Shown one piece after another: positions 7,287 to 29,501 of a DNA stretch of 36,376 nt. Positions within the stretch are counted from its first letter, which is position 1; each line of letters starts with the position of its first letter. The stretch lies in IMG/VR virus record IMGVR_UViG_3300044454_000033, positions 1-36,376 of that record. One strand, given 5' to 3'. This DNA comes from a virus. Taxonomy: Duplodnaviria > Caudoviricetes. The translations under genes were made by a program, and so were the position numbers. The notes beneath the pieces are model-generated. The model worked only from the letters and a program-made list of their open reading frames with translations. It did no database searches and was not told the DNA's origin.

Positions 7287-8617
7287 TACGTCACCGTGAG
7301 CATCGGGTCAACGTACAGTGTGTAGCTCGCCTTCGCCACGCAAACCTTCGCGTGGATAAATCCCTTCATCTGCGGCGTGAACGTGACCGAGAGATTCTGT
7401 GTGTTCGGATTGCTCATACCCGTGGTTGTCCACGTTTCACTGCTTGTCGTTTGATCTGCGGCGGAAGCTAAAAAGTCGGCTTTCCAATCGGTATTGCGTG
7501 AACCTATTGGCGTGGCACTCGACCCAAGAAATGCAACCTCCAGCCACACTGCATCATCCTTAAGATTGGTAGCAGAATCATGCAAGATTTCAACCGTGAC
7601 AGTCTTGCTGCTGCCGGTCGCATCATTCCATATAACAATTTCATCCGACCGGAGGGGGGACGCAAATGTAGCGTTGGCGTTGGATACTAACTTCCACGAA
7701 ATGCCAGTTGTGCCATTGCTTGCGCCGCCAGTTTTGATTAATGTTGTCTCGTGCGTTATGGTGCCGCAACTATCTTCGATCAAAAGTCGATAATTCGTTG
7801 CGCCCGAGTCGCAGTTATACATCGACACACGCACATCAGGCTCCACCGTTCCCGACAACAATACCCCCGACCAACTTGTAGGCAGTTTGCAATTTTTGAA
7901 AGTAACGCGCGCTCCCCCCAAAACCGAACCAACCATATTTATGGTTGCGCTGGCGGCAGAAATATCGAAACCATCAAATATCATCGGCGCGATCCCCGCT
8001 GATGTTTGCGGCACAACCAACGCCGTCGGGCTAGTTCCACCGGACAACAAAGAACCGCCGTATACATTTAAAGTCGTGCCAGACGTCGGTTTGAATCCTT
8101 GTGCCGTTGCGGCAAATTTAAATGTGCAGTTATACAAATTAACAGCCGCACCACCGGCACCTTGAATGCTTGCCGACGCTCCCGTGGTAGCCAGTTGAAA
8201 ACTGCAATTGTCGTATGTGGAGAATCCAACAGCACCGCCAAGCGAAAAAATCGCAGTACCGGAAGCGCCACTACCAACAATAAATGTAATGCCATAAAAG
8301 AATACGGATTTGCCCCCACTACGCGGCGTAATCGATGAATTGCCCGTCGTTGTGACAGTAGCACTTGCCGCTACCGATGTCGGTGGGGTAGCCCCATCAT
8401 CGGCGCAAATCACATAAATCGGTGCCGCAAGGGTTGCCGTAGACCAGTTAGCGGAAATGGCCGACGCGACCGTTTCCGCGTGCGCCTGACTAACGTTAAC
8501 GGTGTCGCCCGCCGCAGCAACAGCCGCAGCTCCAACAAGGGTTCCTTTCGCGTCCGCCCACGATGTTCCGCCATTCCCATCGTTGCCTGTAGTTGATTTG
8601 ACATAGACGTTCGCCAT
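7286..8617 (-). CDS. Right-handed beta-helix (pectin-lyase-like) tailspike/adhesin-type protein (443 aa)
   Basis: N-terminal YVKSTTGNDGNGGTSWADAKGTL..AAAGDTVNV cap motif and recurring YDNCSF / LYNCTF / TFKNCK / MYNCD coil motifs; TAATG coupling. Confidence 0.7.
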   Translation of the reverse strand: MANVYVKSTTGNDGNGGTSWADAKGTLVGAAAVAAAGDTVNVSQAHAETVASAISANWSTATLAAPIYVICADDGATPPTSVAASATVTTTGNSSITPRSGGKSVFFYGITFIVGSGASGTAIFSLGGAVGFSTYDNCSFQLATTGASASIQGAGGAAVNLYNCTFKFAATAQGFKPTSGTTLNVYGGSLLSGGTSPTALVVPQTSAGIAPMIFDGFDISAASATINMVGSVLGGARVTFKNCKLPTSWSGVLLSGTVEPDVRVSMYNCDSGATNYRLLIEDSCGTITHETTLIKTGGASNGTTGISWKLVSNANATFASPLRSDEIVIWNDATGSSKTVTVEILHDSATNLKDDAVWLEVAFLGSSATPIGSRNTDWKADFLASAADQTTSSETWTTTGMSNPNTQNLSVTFTPQMKGFIHAKVCVAKASYTLYVDPMLTVT

Positions 8618-9087
8618 TACTCACCCACCGCAGACTGCACGGCCAAATAGTTGTCCCGCAGCGCAAGCATCTTCGCCTTGAGCGTCGTCCACTGCCCCGC
8701 CGTCAGGCCGAACGCATTACGCACCTGAGTCTCCGTCACCCATCCGGCATTCACGCGATTGATGATCCAGTTCGCCAGATACGCGCACTGTACCTGCGTC
8801 GCGTCGCGATACGCTTCGCGCATGACAGGCGCGAAGTCTGGCTTCGTGGCGTACTCCAGCACAGGGTCAGCATCAACGAGCAACGCAGCTTCAATCTCGT
8901 TCGCAATCAAGCGCAGACCAATTTGCGTAGCCCGTGCCGCGCGAATGGCAACGTAGTCTGCATCACTCGCTGCAAGGTACTCGACAAGATGATGCCGCGA
9001 GAACTCGTCAACATGGTCCTCGACAACGTACCGGCGACCATCCGCCTGCACGGTGCCGAGGGTGTGCGTGGAAGATGCTATGGGCAC
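8617..9087 (-). CDS. Hypothetical protein (156 aa, MPIASSTHTLG...), possible fibre assembly chaperone
   Basis: GTG at 9087 after GGGGGT. The longer ORF-track version (to 9354) would overlap the 9114-9587 gene. Confidence 0.65.
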   Translation of the reverse strand: MPIASSTHTLGTVQADGRRYVVEDHVDEFSRHHLVEYLAASDADYVAIRAARATQIGLRLIANEIEAALLVDADPVLEYATKPDFAPVMREAYRDATQVQCAYLANWIINRVNAGWVTETQVRNAFGLTAGQWTTLKAKMLALRDNYLAVQSAVGE

Positions 9088-9113
9088 GACATACCCCCAA
9101 GTTGTTGACGCTC

Positions 9114-9587
9114 TTACGCGATACGCAATAGACCGGTGGACGAATCGTTCGTCGGCATGGTCAGTGTGAAGTTGCCCGCCGACACCGACTGGCCGACGCC
9201 AATGGTGCCCAGCGCGTAGGTAGCGACCGCCTTGTTGGATTGCGTGCTGTTGTACAGCAGACAGCAGTCCGTGGTAAACGTGACGTTCGTCCACGAGATC
9301 GACGCCGACGGCGTGGTGAACGCCGTGGTACCGGACGAGTTGGGCGCAATCCACGTGAACGTAGCACCGCCCGCCGTGTAATTGGCCGACGAAACCTCGT
9401 TGGTTGCGCTATACGCCGTGGTGCTCGCACCAATCGACCCCGCCGTGGTGTACAACGCGCATTTGAACGTATCCGCTGTAGGCGCGGTCAGGCTGGTACG
9501 CGACGTGATGGTGGGTGAACCGAACTGATGTACGGCGTTGAGCAGTTCGACCTTGAACGACGTGCAGATTGCGGCAGCATTTGCCAT
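9114..9587 (-). CDS. Conserved small phage virion/fibre protein, CTSFKVEL...FKCALYT...NEV...YTAGG family (paralog 2, 157 aa)
   Basis: RBS AAGGAG; aligns end to end with 9832-10257; motif recognised from many uncultured Caudoviricetes fibre loci. Confidence 0.8.
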   Translation of the reverse strand: MANAAAICTSFKVELLNAVHQFGSPTITSRTSLTAPTADTFKCALYTTAGSIGASTTAYSATNEVSSANYTAGGATFTWIAPNSSGTTAFTTPSASISWTNVTFTTDCCLLYNSTQSNKAVATYALGTIGVGQSVSAGNFTLTMPTNDSSTGLLRIA

Positions 9588-9831: not shown

Positions 9832-10257
9832 TTAAACAAGTCTCAGTAATGCTGTAGTAGCAGTTACCGGCGGTAGGTTGACGGTAAACGTGCCATTCGT
9901 TACGGTTTGGTTCCCACCAAAATCAAGCACCGCAATAGCTTTGTTACTCACCGACGAGTTGTAGATCAGGGCTTGACTCGCCGTAAAGGATACACTACTC
10001 CATGTAGGGTTAGAGCTGAAGGTTTGCATAGCAGTCGTACCAGACGCACTAGAGTCCACATTGGTGAGTGGGAACCCTCCCGCAGTGTAGTTCGCATGTG
10101 CAACCTCGTTGGATGAAGAGTAGGCAGTGGTGGTGGCATCCAGTGCCGCCGACGATGTGTAAAGCGCGCACTTGAACGTGTGCCCTCCCGACGCCGAAAA
10201 GTTGTGCGCCGCACGAAACAACTCTACCTTAAAGCTCGTACACAACGCCTGCGTCAT
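9832..10257 (-). CDS. Conserved small phage virion/fibre protein, CTSFKVEL family (paralog 1, 141 aa)
   Basis: ATGA coupling to the upstream gene; TQALCTSFKVEL..HNF..GHTFKCALYTSSA.LDATTTAY..NEV..YTAGG..ALIYN..AIAVLDFGG motif. Confidence 0.8.
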   Translation of the reverse strand: MTQALCTSFKVELFRAAHNFSASGGHTFKCALYTSSAALDATTTAYSSSNEVAHANYTAGGFPLTNVDSSASGTTAMQTFSSNPTWSSVSFTASQALIYNSSVSNKAIAVLDFGGNQTVTNGTFTVNLPPVTATTALLRLV

Positions 10258-12220: not shown

Positions 12221-12570
12221 TTTTGATTTATCCGCAGCCCGTTCTGCCCTGCAACAAGTTGCTGCAGAACTTCGATTTGACTGCTGATACGATCCATGCG
12301 AGCAAGCAACTCTCGGCGCTGTTCTGTTGCTTCCAGTTCGTGCCTACGCGAAGTTGCCTCTACATGATCCGTGCGAACTTCGACAACGCGAATTCGCTCG
12401 TTAATGCTTGACCCCCAAATTACAAGCGCAATAATGAACGGGCTGATACCCACGAATGTACCGACGATCTCCTTAATCATCGTCCACTCGGAGCGAGTCT
12501 TGAGTCCGTTACTGGACTCTTCAGATTGAACTTGTAGTGTGGTCATGTCCCGCTCATTTGGTGTTGGCAT
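12217..12570 (-). CDS. Single-TM plus coiled-coil membrane protein (holin/spanin-like), up to 117 aa; start uncertain
   Basis: TM segment IVGTFVGISPFIIALVIWG followed by a heptad-rich helix; located at the head of the lysis module. Confidence 0.65.
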   Translation of the reverse strand: MPTPNERDMTTLQVQSEESSNGLKTRSEWTMIKEIVGTFVGISPFIIALVIWGSSINERIRVVEVRTDHVEATSRRHELEATEQRRELLARMDRISSQIEVLQQLVAGQNGLRINQK

Positions 12571-15500
12571 AAGAGTACCGCTCCATCAAAGGCAGATAGC
12601 GCGGCAGCGTGGCAATGTCGGTACCGCTAATGTCAACGACAGCACGTGCTTTCGCACGCGCGCTCATACCCGAACCCACGTCGATACGAAACTGTGGGTT
12701 CTGTGTGTTGAACGCCAACACGTCTTGCAGAACTTGGGTGGTGTCCTCACCACTTTCTGCTGCGCGAAAATACTGATTCGACAGCACAGTCTTACGCTGC
12801 TTCAGCAGACCTTCCATTTGCCGCATGGCGAAGTTAACCTCAGACTGTTCTGCCTTAACCGATGGGGTAAATCCTACACCCTGCACGAACAACGCCCATG
12901 GAGTAACCTCCATGGGTAACCTGTTACCTGTAGCGGTAGTGTACCCGGTATCGCCCATCTTCACTGACTTGATCGGACCCCGCAACGCCAGCGGAGTCAT
13001 CTGGATCAGTCCGTCCATCAACATGCCGTCCGCGATCTTGCCTAAACCGACGAACATGTCCTGCCCCGCGCTTACCGCTGGGCCGAGAAGATCGAGCGCA
13101 CCGCTTTCAACTTTGTCCTTGAACACGCGCCGATCTGCGAAGAAGCGGGACCCCGGCAGAACGTCAGCGAGACCGGCACGATTGCTGGTATCGAACCCCA
13201 GCACAGCGCGCGGAATGCCCCGCGCTATGGCTTCTCCTACGTCCTTACCAACAACGCTAGAGAGCCAGTTGCGATATGCCGTCTTGATGTCCGATGGCTC
13301 GTCGTCCGATCCGAGGATGGCATCAGCAACCCGCGTTATCACCGAGGCCAGCGGAAGCCCCAGCGTACCCGCGATCAGGCTGGTGGTGGCCATCACCCCA
13401 CCAAGCTGGTAACGCGCGATGCTGCGATCTTCAGCCGTCTCCCCGCGCAGCGAGTCGTAGGCCATGCGGTACATCAACTCCATCACCTGAAATGAGTAGT
13501 TCTGGAACGACGCGAGTAGCGGCGTAACCTTTCCAGCAAAGCCGTGCCTGCCCAGTGCACGAGCCGTATTGTGGTCAGAATAATCAAACTGCGTGGCGCG
13601 TACGGCCTCGATGGCATGTCGAGAGGCGAGTTCTCGTTTCGCGTCACTGTCCCCCTCCTTGCGTACTTCGAGGTTGTACGACGTCAGCGCCGCCGTCAGG
13701 CGGTTAACTACTTCGGAATAGTGACTAAACGCGCTCAACCCCTTCATCACTGAAGCGCGCGTGCGCGACTCACCTTCAGCAAGCCGACCCAGCTCATGAC
13801 TCTGCGTCGTGTCGAGCTGCCCCGAGGCCAGCAGTGCGCGAATCATGTCCTTCTCGCCCACCGACAATTTCGACTGGTCGAGCCGCAGCGTAAGGTCAAG
13901 CACACCGTGCACAGCCCCACCAACACCACCCGCAGCCTGACCAGCCGCCCACCCCGCCTTGACCGCATCCTGCACGAGTCCAAAAGCCTTGGCGGATGAA
14001 CGCCCCATCTCCTTGGCACTGGCCACGAACCCGTAGCGTCCACCTAGATACGGCAACGTCAGGTGGTACGGCTGCATCAGGTTGACCATGACGAACGCCG
14101 GGCTGGCGGCAAGGTAGAAGTTAAATCCACCAGACTTCATCATGTCGATGATGGGTGAATCTACCGGGTTGAGACTGTTGGCAAATCGTTTTCCGAATTC
14201 CGTAACCACTGCTTGCGCCACGTCCTGCGTGTTCGGGTCCGAACCCGGATTGCGCAAGCGGTTGGCTTCATCCTTCAACTTCTCGAACGCCTTGTCGTAC
14301 ATCGGCATCGTGTACGCATTCGACAGCATTGTGGACATGCCGATGGAGCGTTTGGCGAAGCTACGTCGGAAGTCCGCGTCATAGCCAGCGATACCACCGC
14401 CCCTACGCTGCGCAAGCGCCTTCGCTGGTGATGTATCTGGCTGCAGATTCAACAGCTCCTTCGTCATGAATAGCCGCAGTTCTTCGCCCTGTGCTCCGGG
14501 GAATGCTGCCTGCACGCGCCGGATCAGCATCTGCGCCACATGCGGGAGTCCTTTGGTAAGCGCGTACAGGTCGTCATTATTGGCGAGACTACCCGCCCGC
14601 ATAGTATCCGGCTCGATGTGCTCGCTTATGGACTTCACTGCCGCCGCCGCTGCATTCCTGCGCGCGGGGTCCTCGAAGCGCATAAACACACGATTCTGAT
14701 TCGGTGTTCCGATCACCTTGCCGAACGACGCGAGCGCCTGCTGCACCGCTTGCCAATGCACCTCACCCGGTAGCGCGGAAAATTCGACAAAGTAGTCACC
14801 AGAACGACCAAGGTGTTGGTACGGGTTCGCCACCGCAAGGTGATACAACTTCTCCACCTGCCTCACTTCCTCGCCCAAAAACGACTTCGCTTCCCCGATC
14901 TCAGTACCAAGGTGCTCAAATACCCCACGCAGCGTCTTATCCAAGTCGGCTGAGTATGCGTCAAAGTAATAGTCGGGGCGCGGGTTCACGCCCTTACCAA
15001 AATCGGGGCTTTGAATGTCCAGCAACTTCACCGCCGGAGAGATGTTGGTTTCACTCTCCGTATGTGTACGCAATATTCCAACCAACGTCTGCGCTGTCTG
15101 CTGGATGTAGTTCTTGCGGAACACGCGCACCGAATCTTCCAACACCTTGCGCAACGCGGGATCGACACGCATGTACTCGGCGTGGAGCTGGTTCACGTAG
15201 CTGCGCAGTTCAGGATCAAGTTCCTTGTTGCGCCGAAGATTCTCATCGAAGTTCTTGTTCAGATCGATGTTCAGCACGCTCTGCTCACCCGCGAACTGCA
15301 TCAGCCGCTGGTTCATCTTCTCAGCTTGCTGCCGAGGCATCTTCGCCAGCAGCATGTCCAGCGGCTTGAGCACGCTGGAAAACTCCAACTGCTTGTTCTG
15401 CCGCATCGTCGTCTTGGTCGAATCGGCGAACATGAAGTCTCGCACGCCATCAACCATGGGCCGCAACGCGGGCACGCGGTCGATCATCTGCGCGAGATTG

Positions 15501-18500
15501 AACGTCGTGGACAACGACAGCATGGCGCTGCGCGCCTTCTCCCCAAGCTGACCAACGAACTTGTGGTCTGCTGCGAACCGCTCGTACTGCTTCGTAAGCG
15601 CACCGACCGTCAAGTCCACTTGCGAGAACGCGCCAGTCACGGAATGCTCGAACGTCAACGCACTGTTCGCAGCAAACCGCGAATTGCTGAGATACGGAAT
15701 GGAGAGCCGCAGCGCATGCTCCCACATCGAATCAACCTCAGTGGTAGTGCGACCAAACAGCCCGTTCCACCAGTTCTTGACGCGCTGCCACAGCGACAGC
15801 TCCTGCGACACCTGCGTGCTTAGCCAGTCTTGGAACTTGTCGTTGGACAGAACTTCCGCGACGAACTCTTCCTCGTTCTTGAACGCGTAGGCGCTGGGTG
15901 GATTCAGCTCCTTGATACGCGCCATGAGGTCGCGCAGCTCGTTCAGTGACGCGACCGCCGCTTTCTGTTCGACGGTACGAACCATCCAAGAAATCTTCTC
16001 AGCCGCTTTCGCAAACGCAATACGAGCAACTGTCGCCGCGTGCGTCGCTTCGTGGATGACAGTATGGGCATTCTCACCTCCGAGGTAGATGCTGATCCCC
16101 CCATTGACGTGGTGATACCGTCCGTAGACTCGGTTACCATCCTTGTCACGCGCGACGGTCCCGGCCAACCTGACAGGGGATTTCAGACTTAATCCACGAA
16201 GGATATGCGCCATGGACCGAAGCCACTCAGACGGCGCGCTCGTCTCCAGTAACTGCAGCACGCGGTCGAGATTGCCTCGCCCAAGCTCCTGCGCAAGCGA
16301 TTGCGAGTACGTGTAGTTGGGAAGCTCCGCATGCAGATTATCCAGCGTCGGGTCCATACGCGTACGACGATCCACTTCGGCGTCGAACGCAGCCTTCTCA
16401 GCCTTCGACATCTTCGACACCTGCACCACACCGCCACGCTTATCCGACAACTCGGCCAGATACGCGTCATAGTGCTTCTGCTTGTTGTTCTTCCGCAGCC
16501 GTTCGATCTCGGCGTGCACGACGCTATCGCGCAGGTAGATCGATTCCAACTGTTTGACGCGCTCCATGCCAGCCGCGTATTCCGCAGGGTCGTACGCCTT
16601 CAGCCACTCCAACGCAGCAGTGGCATTAGCCTTGTCGCGCGCTGCCTGAACCTTCTCGGTTGCATCGAACTTGACGCGCGTGCCCGCTGAATTTTTTCCT
16701 TCCGCCATATTCACGGCGTTGGCAAAGTCCGTCGTCCACGTGGCATTCAGCGAATTGCCGATACCCTTCTCAGGCAGGAAGTTGTAGTACTCGAACGCGA
16801 ACTGACTGGACGATGGCACATTCCGTTGGTGTTCCACGGGGATGTTGCGCCCTTCCTCAAGCGCGTAATGCTTGGCCAAATTGCGCGCACGTTCCGCCGC
16901 TCGCGCAGTCTTTGCACGCAGTTGCCACTTACTCTGCGCCGTCGTGGGCGTGTCGTATGAGATCGTCCCATCCGGCGCAGTGAACGAGAACGCGCCCCAC
17001 GGAACTTCTTCCCCAGTGGACTCGACCTTAACCTGCGGAGTTTCCGCAAGCAAACTCATTCGACGTGGCTCCGCTCGCGCGGCCTGCACCGTCGCTTGGG
17101 TTTTCTTCGCAACGGGTGCAGCAACCGGGGGGGACTCCACCGCAAGGGGAGTAGAAACGGCTTCGCCTACCCCCGGCGCTGCAGCGGGTGCGGGCGTCAG
17201 CAGGCTTTGCTTTTGCCCTTCATCATTGCGCTGGGCTTCGGCATTCCTTTGCCCTTGCCCATTGACGAGGGGGTCTTGGAAGAGGGAGCCGACTTGCCCT
17301 TGAGGAACTTCGCTGGGAGTGCCATGTGCGTTCTCCTGAGAAAGTTGCGCCGCCGGTAGCGGCAGCGTGGGGGTACCACTGGTGAGGTGGTCGATCACGG
17401 CGCTCATCGCGTCGCGGCTGACTGTGTTCTCGGTCATGGCGTCGCGGGCCTTGCGCAACGCCACAAGCTGCTGCATCCACATCTTCTTACCCGATGCGGA
17501 TGACAGCGCCATCTCGATCTTCTTGCGTACTTGGCCTTTGTACTCGGTCCCTGCGTTCGTCACCGCAACGCGGGCTACATTCTTCAGCCCGGCGTCAGTG
17601 ATCGGCGTGTTGCCGTTGATGGCAAGCTGCCGTTCGGCTTCAGCGCGAGCAACCGGGTTCGAGACTGGGGGAAGCTCCAGCGCCGCTTGATTGCCGGGCT
17701 GCTTCGCCAGCTTGGCGAGATCGCGCGCCTTCTGCGCTTCTGCCTGCTGCGTACTTCTGGAGACTTCCTCCAGCCGCGCCTTATACGCCGCCTGTGTCTC
17801 GATGCCCCGCCGCACACCTGCCGCTTCCAGCGCCTGCGCCATGGCCGTTGGCGTAGCCGCTTGCTCTGCCTTCTGCGTGCTCCAAAGCGGGGATGGACGC
17901 TCCCCCGCCGGGCGGTTCAGCACCGGCTGTAAGTCAAGTTCGCCCTGCGCGTCATTGCGCGGAGTGAACGGGATAGTCTCGACCGGCTCGATGTTGCCGC
18001 CTTGCCGGGGTGACGGCTCCAGCGCGAACGGGCGTTGCTCGACCGGCGGAATACTCGACCCCGGCTCCGCATTGAGATCGAGCTGATCCTGTGGCGCGAC
18101 CACACCGCGTTGCTCCGCGCTTGCGAGATCGCCGCGTTGCGCCAGCTCCTGATCGACGTACAACCGATACGCCTCACGCTGCCCAGCTCTGGTCGTCTTG
18201 CCCTTGGCCAGCTTCAGCCCATCATCCGGGGTCTGCTTGAGCCAGTCTGCAAACGACAGCACACCGGGCTGCGTGTTGACGATGTAACCACGCGCGACTG
18301 ACTCCGCAGTGGGGCGAGCCGCAACACGCGCATCCGCCTCAATTTGGTTCGCGTCTTGCTGCGCCTGCGTAACGCCGATGTCGTTCCACTGTTCATCGAA
18401 CCACTTGGCGTTCTTTACTCGGTCCAAACGCCACAGTGCGAACTGTTCCTTGCCCACCAACGGTTCAATCGACGGTGCGAGCTGCGCTGCTGCTGCGTTG

Positions 18501-19465
18501 GTCTCAGCAGCAGTTGAGTCAACCCGGTCAATGGTGTTAAGCGCGTTCTTGTTCTGGTTCTGCTGGCGACGCAGTGACATCGCACCGAACGGTCCAAGGA
18601 ACGCTGTCATCGCCAGCACCGGACCTACCGCCGATGTCGCGGCCTTCCATGGATCAGTGTTGTCGATACCTGCGGCCTTCTCCACGGCGGCTTCGCCGTA
18701 GTTCTGGCCCATTTCCGTGCTGGTCTCAACCGCAGCGGTTTTGGCGAAGTCCTTCGCAAGCGTCGGCAGAAACTGTGGATTGCGCGCAGTCTTGAGCGCG
18801 GCATCGACCGTAAGTTTCTTGCCGAGAAGCGTTGGTACGGCGCTGATGAATTTGCCGCCCACCATCGTACCAACCGTCTCACCAACACCCTCAATCGCCC
18901 CAGTCTTGAAGCCAAGCCTGCGCGCTTCTTCCGGCGTCTTACCCGCCTTGATCGCCTTCTCGTAGGTATCCTGTGCTTGCGACGCGCCAAACAGCGCACC
19001 ACCCGCAGCACCCGCGATCCCCATCGCACCCATGGGGGTAGCGCCTGCAGCGAGCGCCACCGGCACTGCCGCCATCGCCGACAGACTGGGAGCCAACATC
19101 GCCCCACCCTGCGCGAATGCGTTTGTGACGGCGTTATGCGCGTCGGGGTTCAGGTCCTCCGCGTACTGAGCATTCTGCATCTCCGCGTAGTCGCGGAGAC
19201 CTTTACCGGGAAGGTTGAACCACTGCAGTCCTTGTCCCACCATCTTCGGGACTTCGGAGAACACACCCCGCATCACCCCCGCGCCGATCTCGCCTAGCGC
19301 ACCACGTGGTTGATCCTGCAGCTCGATCTGCTTATCCACCATCGCCTGTTGGGCGGGTGTCAGCTTGTCGTACGGGTCAACCTCCGGTTCTACAACCGGC
19401 GCAGGTTTCTTACGCGCAAGCGGAAACGCCGGTAACCCGAGCGTGGAAAGATCGAGACCAGCCAT
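12554..19465 (-). CDS. Giant internal virion/DNA ejection protein (2303 aa) with a zincin-like HEXXH module and a PLxRFG-like C-terminal region
   Basis: TVIHEATH...EEFVAE motif; PYQHLGRSGDYF resembles the PLxRFG signature; Ala/Gly-rich N-terminal helices; position after the adaptor and a smaller ejection gene. Confidence 0.85.
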   Translation of the reverse strand: MAGLDLSTLGLPAFPLARKKPAPVVEPEVDPYDKLTPAQQAMVDKQIELQDQPRGALGEIGAGVMRGVFSEVPKMVGQGLQWFNLPGKGLRDYAEMQNAQYAEDLNPDAHNAVTNAFAQGGAMLAPSLSAMAAVPVALAAGATPMGAMGIAGAAGGALFGASQAQDTYEKAIKAGKTPEEARRLGFKTGAIEGVGETVGTMVGGKFISAVPTLLGKKLTVDAALKTARNPQFLPTLAKDFAKTAAVETSTEMGQNYGEAAVEKAAGIDNTDPWKAATSAVGPVLAMTAFLGPFGAMSLRRQQNQNKNALNTIDRVDSTAAETNAAAAQLAPSIEPLVGKEQFALWRLDRVKNAKWFDEQWNDIGVTQAQQDANQIEADARVAARPTAESVARGYIVNTQPGVLSFADWLKQTPDDGLKLAKGKTTRAGQREAYRLYVDQELAQRGDLASAEQRGVVAPQDQLDLNAEPGSSIPPVEQRPFALEPSPRQGGNIEPVETIPFTPRNDAQGELDLQPVLNRPAGERPSPLWSTQKAEQAATPTAMAQALEAAGVRRGIETQAAYKARLEEVSRSTQQAEAQKARDLAKLAKQPGNQAALELPPVSNPVARAEAERQLAINGNTPITDAGLKNVARVAVTNAGTEYKGQVRKKIEMALSSASGKKMWMQQLVALRKARDAMTENTVSRDAMSAVIDHLTSGTPTLPLPAAQLSQENAHGTPSEVPQGQVGSLFQDPLVNGQGQRNAEAQRNDEGQKQSLLTPAPAAAPGVGEAVSTPLAVESPPVAAPVAKKTQATVQAARAEPRRMSLLAETPQVKVESTGEEVPWGAFSFTAPDGTISYDTPTTAQSKWQLRAKTARAAERARNLAKHYALEEGRNIPVEHQRNVPSSSQFAFEYYNFLPEKGIGNSLNATWTTDFANAVNMAEGKNSAGTRVKFDATEKVQAARDKANATAALEWLKAYDPAEYAAGMERVKQLESIYLRDSVVHAEIERLRKNNKQKHYDAYLAELSDKRGGVVQVSKMSKAEKAAFDAEVDRRTRMDPTLDNLHAELPNYTYSQSLAQELGRGNLDRVLQLLETSAPSEWLRSMAHILRGLSLKSPVRLAGTVARDKDGNRVYGRYHHVNGGISIYLGGENAHTVIHEATHAATVARIAFAKAAEKISWMVRTVEQKAAVASLNELRDLMARIKELNPPSAYAFKNEEEFVAEVLSNDKFQDWLSTQVSQELSLWQRVKNWWNGLFGRTTTEVDSMWEHALRLSIPYLSNSRFAANSALTFEHSVTGAFSQVDLTVGALTKQYERFAADHKFVGQLGEKARSAMLSLSTTFNLAQMIDRVPALRPMVDGVRDFMFADSTKTTMRQNKQLEFSSVLKPLDMLLAKMPRQQAEKMNQRLMQFAGEQSVLNIDLNKNFDENLRRNKELDPELRSYVNQLHAEYMRVDPALRKVLEDSVRVFRKNYIQQTAQTLVGILRTHTESETNISPAVKLLDIQSPDFGKGVNPRPDYYFDAYSADLDKTLRGVFEHLGTEIGEAKSFLGEEVRQVEKLYHLAVANPYQHLGRSGDYFVEFSALPGEVHWQAVQQALASFGKVIGTPNQNRVFMRFEDPARRNAAAAAVKSISEHIEPDTMRAGSLANNDDLYALTKGLPHVAQMLIRRVQAAFPGAQGEELRLFMTKELLNLQPDTSPAKALAQRRGGGIAGYDADFRRSFAKRSIGMSTMLSNAYTMPMYDKAFEKLKDEANRLRNPGSDPNTQDVAQAVVTEFGKRFANSLNPVDSPIIDMMKSGGFNFYLAASPAFVMVNLMQPYHLTLPYLGGRYGFVASAKEMGRSSAKAFGLVQDAVKAGWAAGQAAGGVGGAVHGVLDLTLRLDQSKLSVGEKDMIRALLASGQLDTTQSHELGRLAEGESRTRASVMKGLSAFSHYSEVVNRLTAALTSYNLEVRKEGDSDAKRELASRHAIEAVRATQFDYSDHNTARALGRHGFAGKVTPLLASFQNYSFQVMELMYRMAYDSLRGETAEDRSIARYQLGGVMATTSLIAGTLGLPLASVITRVADAILGSDDEPSDIKTAYRNWLSSVVGKDVGEAIARGIPRAVLGFDTSNRAGLADVLPGSRFFADRRVFKDKVESGALDLLGPAVSAGQDMFVGLGKIADGMLMDGLIQMTPLALRGPIKSVKMGDTGYTTATGNRLPMEVTPWALFVQGVGFTPSVKAEQSEVNFAMRQMEGLLKQRKTVLSNQYFRAAESGEDTTQVLQDVLAFNTQNPQFRIDVGSGMSARAKARAVVDISGTDIATLPRYLPLMERYSYANTK
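17197..17325 (-). CDS. Putative overprinted 42-aa Lys/Met-rich peptide MALPAKFLKGKSAPSSKTPSSMGKGKGMPKPSAMMKGKSKAC in an alternative frame of the giant gene
   Basis: CAGGAGA RBS at 17332-17338 before ATG 17325; phage-like AAG/GGC/TTC/CTC codons in this frame while the host frame switches to CAA/GAA/AAT. Confidence 0.6.
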   Translation of the reverse strand: MALPAKFLKGKSAPSSKTPSSMGKGKGMPKPSAMMKGKSKAC

Positions 19466-20547
19466 TACTTATTCCCATAGATCGCGGTAGCAGCGGCGTT
19501 CTTCTTGTCTTTCTTAGACGCCGCGTCTATGTCTTTCTGCGAATAGAACGTGAGCTTCCCATCCGGCCCGATATGTACACCGCCACCATTCATCGGGTTG
19601 AAATCGAACTTACCGACCGGCGGGATGCGCGGCTGCGTAGCACTGAACGCTGCCGTCGTATCGTGAACCGCGCCAATATCGCCTTCAGCAAGCCCCGCCG
19701 CCTGCTGTTCGCCACGCAGGATGTCGCTCAGATGGATTCGCTGCATCGCCTGCGTTGCATTCGCGTGCGTCGCCGCCGTCGAGTCGATACCGTACCGCTG
19801 CGTGGAATCGTGCATTTTGGCGATGTTGCCCTGAACGTCCTGTCCACGCTGCTGCGTGTAGTCACCCATCATGGCGAGCGGCACTTCGTTCGCGGCGCGC
19901 AGCGCCGACGACTGCGCGCCCAGCATGTTGGCTTGCGCGTTCGCCGCACCCACGCGCGTGTTGCCCATCGCGGCCTCGCTTAACATCATCCGGTCGCGCA
20001 TCTTGGCGAGCTGGCGACCACGCCAGTTATCAACCATGGAGCGTGACGACAGAAGCGCGTTCGAGCGTGTGTACAAGTCCTGCATCTGCGACGAGATGCC
20101 GGGCGAGAATAGGCCGTTTCCACCACCGCCGCTGACACCACTCTGCACCGTGTTGAAGTCGCTGCCACCACCCTGCGGAAACTGCGCGAACTGAATGTTC
20201 GGTCGCTGCGCAGATGGCACTACGTCCGCGCCCTGTGGTTCCGCACCCGGATAGGTTGAGTCCTGATACACCGTCTTGACGCTGCCGTTCGGCATATTCT
20301 GCTGCGACTGCGCGAGTTCGGTTGGGTAGTTGGGGCGATTCAGCGCCGGGTTATCTGCCGTAGGCGCATCAGCCGTCGTATCCATCGCCGTCGCAACTGC
20401 GTTGCGTGTTGACGACGGTACGGTAGAAAACCCAGTGTTCTGCAGCATGGCCCGCATTTGCATGTCCAGCGGAACCGGCGTGTCCTTACTCTTGCCGTAC
20501 ACCACTTCCGACATCGAAGGGAATCGTTCGTGTGTGTAGCCAGCCAT
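19465..20547 (-). CDS. Internal virion/ejection protein (360 aa)
   Basis: Gln/Ala/Met-rich with a QQRGQD motif; TAATG-coupled to the giant ejection gene. Confidence 0.65.
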   Translation of the reverse strand: MAGYTHERFPSMSEVVYGKSKDTPVPLDMQMRAMLQNTGFSTVPSSTRNAVATAMDTTADAPTADNPALNRPNYPTELAQSQQNMPNGSVKTVYQDSTYPGAEPQGADVVPSAQRPNIQFAQFPQGGGSDFNTVQSGVSGGGGNGLFSPGISSQMQDLYTRSNALLSSRSMVDNWRGRQLAKMRDRMMLSEAAMGNTRVGAANAQANMLGAQSSALRAANEVPLAMMGDYTQQRGQDVQGNIAKMHDSTQRYGIDSTAATHANATQAMQRIHLSDILRGEQQAAGLAEGDIGAVHDTTAAFSATQPRIPPVGKFDFNPMNGGGVHIGPDGKLTFYSQKDIDAASKKDKKNAAATAIYGNK

Positions 20548-28946: not shown

Positions 28947-29226
28947 TGATCGAGCGCCGGGCGACCAGTGCGTTGTTGATCTCCATCGACAGCGGCGTAC
29001 CGCGCACAACGTACTGCTGCGTACGCTTCAGCAGCGCGCACAGCTCTTCGTCGTTGTCCCCGTGCCGCCAGCCGTTACGCATCGCCCACACGTCCATCTG
29101 CCCGTCCTTGTAGACGTACTCGGGCGGGACCGCGCGCCCCACCCAAGCCAGTATCGCCGTCATGAGCGCGTCACTCTTCGTCCTATCGAACGGGTTGATG
29201 ATGTCGAACAGCTCGCGCGAGTCCAT
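28939..29226 (-). CDS. Hypothetical protein (95 aa, MDSRELFDII...)
   Basis: TGATG coupling to the acb2 stop; its end overlaps the terL start by 8 nt. Confidence 0.7.
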   Translation of the reverse strand: MDSRELFDIINPFDRTKSDALMTAILAWVGRAVPPEYVYKDGQMDVWAMRNGWRHGDNDEELCALLKRTQQYVVRGTPLSMEINNALVARRSING

Positions 29227-29501
29227 CAGAAGCTCGTCGGCTGCGCCACGGCGCGCACCAGCGCCATGAAGCCCTTCTGCAGATCGGTGCGCGCGATGGC
29301 AACCCACCGCGTGTCGAGTTTGCCGTTCATGGCCATGCCCTCGACCAGCCGTCCCACCTCGTTGCTGATGGCCTTAATCTCATTGATGAGGTGCAGCTCG
29401 CCTTCGGTCAGTGCGCGATAGCCGGTGATCGGCGTCGGCTTCGACGTTGCGGCAGTGCCGTCATTGTTCAGGTCAAGCTCCAACTGCTCCGGGTTGCTCA
29501 T
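29226..29501 (-). CDS. acb2: Anti-CBASS protein Acb2 family cyclic-oligonucleotide sponge (91 aa)
   Basis: ITGYRALTEGEL.LINEIK and RWVAIARTDLQKGFMALVRAVAQPTSF match the Acb2 signature (IKGYRDL..EI..MN.VK ... RWLAIGKTDIQ.GMMA..RAIAQP.SF); AAGGAGAG RBS. Confidence 0.9.
   Translation of the reverse strand: MSNPEQLELDLNNDGTAATSKPTPITGYRALTEGELHLINEIKAISNEVGRLVEGMAMNGKLDTRWVAIARTDLQKGFMALVRAVAQPTSF

Follow-up and report, generated by a model that had tools for sequence, protein, structure and literature searches.

The question raised by this locus is whether the giant gene for a 2303-aa protein carries a second, much smaller gene in another reading frame and, if so, where that gene came from and what its product does. 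The window, by which we mean the whole stretch of 36,376 nucleotides that was analysed, is the entire IMG/VR record IMGVR_UViG_3300044454_000033, a linear fragment rated 58% complete with 59% G+C. Its minus strand encodes a terminase, a portal-type protein (PHROG 332), a major head protein, an SU10-type adaptor and a tail lysozyme gene. The features of the locus are collected in Table 1.

Table 1. Position of the features in the window, and location of the free-standing look-alikes of the nested frame in other records.
Feature	Position	Strand	Basis
Host gene, 2303 aa, polyvalent/DarB-like putative ejection protein	12554..19465	-	PLxRFG domain, PHROG 10089, HExxH
PLxRFG domain of the host protein, residues 1591-2275	12641..14695	-	NF032893, 359.9 bits against a cut-off of 100
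HEATH, an HExxH motif at host residues 1138-1142 (putative zincin-like metallopeptidase)	16040..16054	-	Invariance in alignment
Linker of the giant protein predicted to be disordered (about residues 699-814), holding the nested gene	17024..17371	-	AlphaFold2
Predicted nested gene ORF1, 42 aa, Lys/Met/Pro/Gly-rich, at host codons 714-756 in the +1 frame	17197..17325	-	ORF and homologues
Conserved core GKGMPKP of the ORF1 peptide, residues 25-31	17233..17253	-	Homologue comparison
Shine-Dalgarno site CAGGAGA of the nested gene, GGAG 7 nt before ATG	17332..17338	-	Same spacing in 15/16 records
Look-alike L255	Behind major head gene		
Look-alike L256	Before terminase and portal		
Look-alikes L263, L279, L283	Between terminase and portal		
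Look-alikes L289, L292	Before small terminase		

The host protein was assigned to the polyvalent/DarB-like class, i.e., giant virion-module proteins with polyvalent-type domains, as it showed the NF032893 domain, a match to PHROG 10089 (E 9e-51) and an HExxH motif. Residues H1138, E1139 and H1142 of this motif were invariant in an alignment of homologues, and the zincin-like metallopeptidase class with HExxH is covered in PMC5512222. The C-terminus was 25-28% similar to DarB-like proteins of cultured podophages. A related protein is virion-associated in phage JC1 (PMC9144972) and another is a proposed ejection protein of phi24B (bioRxiv 10.64898/2026.04.10.717836). Because of these two relatives, together with the PLxRFG domain, the HExxH motif and the DarB-like similarity, the term 'ejection gene' used in the original prediction is a fair inference. 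Polyvalent/DarB-like proteins, as these three sources describe them, share PLxRFG, HExxH and the virion module with the host. The host is about half as large as the DarB-like proteins, and its match to them is confined to the last third of its length. The AlphaFold2 model (host residues 600-1300, 9 sequences) gave pLDDT values below 50 and almost no secondary structure over model residues 100-215, with confident folds on either side. The segment had been described as a low-complexity linker, and the model agrees in predicting disorder. No sigma-70-type promoter was found in 16800-19700 of the window.

Inside this linker, ORF1 starts with an ATG at 17325 and its TGA ends at 17197. It is a complete ORF with its own start and stop, lying wholly within another gene in a different frame, which is the definition of a nested gene. 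The peptide contains 10 Lys, 7 Ser and 5 each of Met, Ala, Pro and Gly, with KGK three times and no Asp, Glu or Arg, and the inner-frame GC1/2/3 is 0.40/0.58/0.74. On recount, every figure of the original prediction held for the peptide and its start (CAGGAGA, ATG at 17325, 42 codons, ten Lys, five Met, zero acidic residues, repeated KGK). The same was true of the host-frame codons over the overlap, CAA for 7/8 Gln, GAA for 3/3 Glu and AAT for 3/3 Asn, compared with 28/120, 52/139 and 32/94 in the remainder of the gene. This codon skew and the Lys/Met content are a single observation and not two independent ones. The openness and acid-freeness of ORF1 were uninformative, because the giant gene contains 9 ATG-started and nearly acid-free +1 ORFs of at least 42 aa. 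The other eight were Arg-rich (10-24 Arg, at most 3 Lys), compared with 10 Lys and 0 Arg in ORF1. Read in the host frame, the ORF1 core GKGMPKP becomes GQRNAEA, and the inner core is the predicted source of the GQGNA-type motif in the homologues' host proteins.

Homologous loci were gathered by host-protein motifs lying outside the overlap. The 15 in-clade records counted as covering the slot (L002, L003, L004, L005, L006, L007, L008, L010, L011, L106, L107, L109, L110, L122, and L252) represent 12 distinct lineages, with L002/L008, L106/L107 and L109/L110 as near-identical pairs. Records that did not reach the slot (L009, L012, L108), duplicates (L104, L105, L114-L121) and weak or distant matches were excluded. 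Host-protein identity to the window was 31-55% in the nine homologues measured. A Lys- and Pro-rich +1 ORF of 23-63 aa with at most 2 acidic residues was present in 15/15 records, and the host frame was unbroken over the overlap in every one of them. The expectation that homologues would carry an RBS, a start and a basic ORF in the alternative frame was borne out at each site covered. ORF1 has its own conserved translation-initiation signal: across the 16 records including the window, the GGAG-to-start spacing of 7 nt differed in L007 only (6 nt). The start codon was ATG, except for GTG in L002/L008, and the stop codon was TGA, TAA or TAG. The peptides themselves were poorly alignable (mean column identity 29%), and most of them showed a G[ML]P-type core.

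A FastTree analysis covered the part of the host that follows the slot. In it, the 12 rows with ORF1 formed one clade with a support of 100 (L252 not included); this tree gives no order of events. The basic nested ORF was absent from the distant full-length homologues L013, L017, L022 and L023 (about 20% identity), which indicates that the giant protein type does not always require one. Four sediment-run contig sets covered the stretch piecewise and showed 3-base indels within the overlap (among the 40 of 177 differences listed). A TAA-ending variant in run X5 was rejected as independent support, being identical to the L004 sequence. L252 (CAYQUO010000028.1), the only homologue among genome contigs, comes from a contig assigned to a MAG titled Anaerolineaceae, which may be a hint at the host or a mis-binned phage.

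We then kept the host protein fixed and redrew its codons from the remainder of the gene in 20,000 draws. For the window, 0/20,000 draws gave 10 Lys in the inner frame (mean 2.4). Over 14 records, the observed Lys count was attained in 0-9 of the 20,000 draws per record, with means of 1.6-3.7. The probability of an open frame was 0.13-1.0, and RBS, start, openness and Lys count occurred jointly in at most 2/20,000 draws. Of 12 RBS-led alternative-frame ORFs in other long genes (96.6 kb), none was basic; of 12 non-focal candidates in giant genes (79.4 kb), one was, and this was an internal start of ORF1 itself. Over 240 long frames (939 kb, a redundant set of collected loci), 18/19 distinct basic nested ORFs sat in this slot type.

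Differences at inner codon positions 1/2/3 were 0.37/0.33/0.48 for ORF1 (8 sequences) and 0.26/0.20/0.45 for a second nested frame, ORF2 (4 sequences), position 3 being the highest in both. Host third-position change was lower in the overlap than in the rest in window/L005 (0.29 vs 0.59), L003/L004 (0.23 vs 0.57) and L106/L107 (0.05 vs 0.09). The suppressed synonymous variation proposed as a check was therefore seen in three of five pairs; window/L006 did not show it (0.55 vs 0.53), nor did L109/L110, where 3/3 changes fell at host position 3 and altered the inner peptide. The ORF1 start region was weakly structured (median percentile 0.92 in 12 records, partly an A-richness effect), and the inner SD was on par with those of ordinary late genes in the window genome. 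The resampling and the inner third-position excess support the claim of the original prediction that selection acts on the inner frame. Judged from these comparisons, ORF1 is almost certainly a real, conserved nested gene.

Its peptide was hardly represented in the databases. A search of a 5.8-billion protein set gave no candidate, and one of 1.84 billion representatives gave 0 matches. A 13-sequence ORF1 profile found just two proteins, both close variants of the nested copies L109/L110 and L010. Scans of viral contigs with single proteins and a first scan of genome contigs showed no match. No PHROG or Pfam match was obtained at E up to 1 for 9 ORF1 peptides, and no NCBIfam match for 2; PHROG 2423 and PHROG 1375 were thus likewise not recovered by the profile searches. 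An ESM Atlas search with ORF1 pointed to unnamed clusters at 0.88-0.89, which we treat as a lead. The predicted ORF1 product belongs to an unnamed microprotein family that has no Pfam, PHROG or NCBIfam profile.

The slot can hold other passengers as well. In L003, L004, L011, L106 and L107, ORF1 is directly followed by ORF2, a second +1 gene of 48-52 aa with its own ATG and with an RBS just past, or overlapping, the ORF1 stop. ORF2 matched PHROG 2423 (E 1.9e-12 to 2.6e-14 in the four tested) and was predicted to form a two-helix fold, for which no PDB match was found by sequence or fold. The ESM Atlas suggested DUF6496 for ORF2 on 11% of one cluster's members, again a lead. Among the best 80 of 145 viral matches to PHROG 2423, 77 stood alone or formed the N-terminal leader of a longer protein; the remaining 3, which were nested, were L003, L004 and L011 themselves. 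The N-terminus of an annotated head maturation protease likewise belongs to PHROG 2423. ORF2 was absent from the window, and PHROG 2423 was not found elsewhere in the window record or in 10 related records, which are mostly fragments.

At a comparable position, the more remote giant gene L145 (27% over residues 117-685 of the host) holds a 56-aa PHROG 1375-like gene, here called MPFKS, which ends in GKGMPKP. Among the best 80 of 480 MPFKS matches, 39 were nested in the +1 frame of frames of at least 1450 codons; one further nested flag (L223) is doubtful and two more nested copies are cut by contig ends. This nested share is biased upward, as the query itself is a nested copy. Over 40 codons, the would-be host frame of free-standing genes contained on average 1.8 stops for PHROG 2423 and 2.7 for MPFKS, and that of nested copies contained none, which indicates that the host frame is also kept open by selection. 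We rejected a pre-adaptation of these microgenes to the +1 position, since free-standing copies showed equal or more host-frame stops (1.78 vs 1.90 and 2.72 vs 1.09). Nested MPFKS-type ORFs of 42-43 aa, unannotated, were also seen in giant structural genes of L248 (gp21 of the cultured Flavobacterium phage elemoA_7-9A) and L249, each from 7001 onward. A host-frame AIQEPS/AVQEPS stretch followed by an acidic run recurs in giant proteins of several unrelated groups (L170-L245); as read from the two frames, it is the shadow of a nested MPFKS gene.

To look for relatives of ORF1 outside giant genes, we used a DNA pattern imposing MPKP...KKxC-stop. It found 41 stretches, of which 16 were in frame, 20 were out of frame and 5 had a different stop. 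The in-frame stretches comprised 3 known nested copies, 3 chance-like ones and 10 free-standing ORFs of 17-24 aa from 7 lineages. The free-standing ORFs had Met starts and Lys-rich, acid-free N-termini, features that lie outside the search pattern. With 31 neighbouring ORFs scanned, 4/7 lineages sat in head/packaging modules; no head or packaging family match was found beside L254, L262 and L276, which make up the other 3/7. Two different free-standing small basic ORFs ending in GKGMPKP were also seen in L144 and L159, immediately before the start of a portal-like gene (portal judged by eye).

Because of these look-alikes, and because the ORF2 and MPFKS families are often free-standing, ORF1 was probably captured from older free-standing phage microgenes rather than newly overprinted. 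Look-alikes in 7 lineages and a disordered, variable host linker point against de novo overprinting; the homology of ORF1 to the look-alikes has no E-value support in protein searches, and short low-complexity peptides can converge. Of the term 'overprinted' in the original prediction, the selection on the inner frame stood, while a new gene written over an old one did not fit the look-alikes and the often free-standing slot families. The microgene is probably the older, constrained frame. Its entry into the linker could have been the insertion of a small cassette of RBS and gene, or a read-through fusion of two flanking genes.

In the mechanism that we propose, some ribosomes would initiate at the inner SD while others traverse the giant frame, so that one stretch of DNA would yield both a floppy linker and a separate polycation; this step is very likely. 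The slot may hold ORF1, ORF1 together with PHROG 2423, or an MPFKS-type gene. The ORF1 product would be a disordered polycation with a pI of 10.4-12.0; trypsin would cleave the window peptide to fragments of 2-10 residues. We infer a role in the prohead from the late-operon position and from the head-module neighbours of the look-alikes. The peptide, made late, would enter the prohead and bind DNA non-specifically or shield charge, or else help to load the large ejection protein with its acidic linker, a proposal towards which we lean slightly. A true DNA-condensing role is doubtful. The reading as a whole, i.e., a captured microgene, translated by internal initiation on late mRNA, with a Lys-rich peptide working in the assembling head, is the one that we favour on balance.

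The original prediction had suggested that the peptide could be protamine-like, and this identity was rejected on composition. Arg-richness is typical of protamines and of viral DNA-condensing proteins that resemble them, such as baculovirus P6.9. ORF1 is like them in being very small, strongly basic and almost acid-free, but the window peptide has 0 Arg and is rich in Lys, Pro, Gly and Met, and the 13 homologues have 0-5 Arg.

The strongest alternative is that the gene is real and its peptide acts in the infected cell rather than in the particle, e.g., by late binding of nucleic acids or ribosomes or by blunting host defence. Three of the seven free-standing lineages lack a recognised head neighbour, and small basic genes of this kind are not confined to head modules: PHROG 2423 is located among tRNA genes in phiCbK and after lysis genes in RSB1, with no head context. 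With four of the seven lineages at terminase, portal or capsid genes and with the slot partner PHROG 2423 as the N-terminus of an annotated head protease, we regard this alternative as unlikely.

In a further reading, the act of translation matters and not the peptide: inner initiation would pace ribosomes or protect the long mRNA, and the sequence would be a by-product. The much better conservation of the RBS spacing than of peptide length or sequence would fit this. Across hosts that are about 30% identical, the peptides nevertheless stay enriched in Lys but not in Arg and retain the G[ML]P core, the same motif occurs in free-standing genes, and ORF2 retains a family sequence with a predicted two-helix fold, which makes this reading improbable.

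A programmed +1 frameshift, by which the giant protein would end at about residue 756 with a basic tail, would use the SD-like site as a stimulator. SD-like stimulators of frameshifting are known (prfB), and ahead of the ATG the +1 frame is free of stops over 23 codons in the window and over up to 57 in L109. Frameshifting is very improbable, because the +1 frame closes just 1 codon ahead of the start in L002, 4 codons ahead in L010 and 6 in L003. SD, 7 nt and start codon also have the geometry of initiation, as at ordinary starts of the window genome, and ORF2 follows the ORF1 stop with its own RBS and ATG. Equally improbable is that ORF1 merely mirrors the Gln, Glu, Asn and Gly content of the linker or is a relic that is not translated: in GC-rich genes, +1 frames that are open and acid-free are common, as the nine such ORFs of the giant gene and the resampled openness indicate, but the joint draws, the RBS spacing fixed across 16 records, the stop retained through three different codons and the PHROG families nested in the same slot all stand against it.

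Among known systems, the closest is lambda Rz1, embedded in the +1 frame of Rz as part of the two-component spanin genes (PMC6139136). According to that source, Rz1 is likewise small and complete, has a start of its own and lies in the same orientation within the +1 frame of a longer phage gene; annotations often overlook it, and in other phages the two genes are separate. Unlike in Rz/Rz1, the gene around ORF1 codes for a polyvalent virion-type protein of 2303 aa, and the passenger is a polycation of 42 aa that has no lipoprotein signal and belongs to a family that is exchangeable in the slot. ORF1 itself has no hydrophobic leader or lipobox, so an Rz1-type o-spanin in this PLxRFG host was not recognised. 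Another same-strand nested microprotein of similar size is GndA, whose 36 aa are encoded in a shifted frame within E. coli gnd (PMC11230408). Unlike ORF1, it lies in a bacterial metabolic gene and has a membrane-associated product, and no family relation to ORF1 is apparent. PHROG 2423 (with its DUF6496-like lead) and the PHROG 1375-like MPFKS genes are similar small basic late-region proteins in the same or a comparable nested slot, and several of their nested copies end in a G[ML]PKP tail resembling the ORF1 core, but ORF1 lacks their N-terminal modules.

A search of full-text literature, with subscription journals thinly covered, found no description of genes nested in giant ejection or polyvalent genes, of MPLKKG or of DUF6496. 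Nested genes are unmentioned in the accessible portions of PMC5512222, PMC9144972, PMC10269572, PMC6606913 and bioRxiv 10.64898/2026.04.10.717836. ORF1 would thus represent a class of phage genes invisible to current annotation, as protein databases yielded no entry for the window peptide, and would add a microprotein family tied to head/packaging modules. Host-frame motifs of giant proteins become explicable as shadows of inner genes. Tentatively, linkers of giant ejection proteins could serve as a swappable docking slot for Lys/Pro/Met/Gly microproteins of 17-60 aa, which, alone or as a two-gene operon, would be packaged with the genome as polycations. If this is true, tailed phages bring along DNA-compacting peptides of their own, and some of the 'conserved motifs' seen in giant phage proteins are mere shadows of hidden genes. 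The packaging of small polycations with DNA by tailed phages becomes testable because the cultured phage elemoA_7-9A shares the layout.

Comparable nested ORFs were missing from the RefSeq tables of four cultured phages. A conserved, unannotated acidic +1 ORF of 102-108 aa was observed in cultured DarB-like giant genes, namely Atu_ph08 gp21 (L164:8535-8843), SopranoGao gp06 (L165:9255-9581), PEp14 gp27 (L166:8007-8324) and Itty13 (L250:7001 onward). Its resemblance to TnpV is weak (Pfam, below cut-off). Matches to this ORF occur in 21 phage records, and it also matches the C-terminal end of PHROG 938, where a frameshift or sequencing error in PHROG 938 members could account for the match. Two further RBS-led +1 ORFs in giant genes, one of 76 aa in PEp14 (L166:5769-5999) and one of 129 aa in Skulduggery (L167:10932-11321), are protein-like in composition and showed no PHROG or Pfam match. 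In the Pseudomonas phage Itty13 (L250, NC_070969.1 161-11419), RefSeq lists three antisense hypothetical genes and the opposite strand is open for 4082 codons; the giant gene looks mis-called there.

Elsewhere in the window, a 91-aa ORF on the minus strand (29226-29501), directly upstream of the terminase gene, contains an Acb2/Tad1 hairpin domain (PF24729, 60.4 bits) and, by this domain, is likely an anti-defence sponge. Two adjacent minus-strand ORFs (9114-9587 and 9832-10257) both match PHROG 644 and are perhaps paralogues; the former overlaps another listed ORF at 8617-9354.
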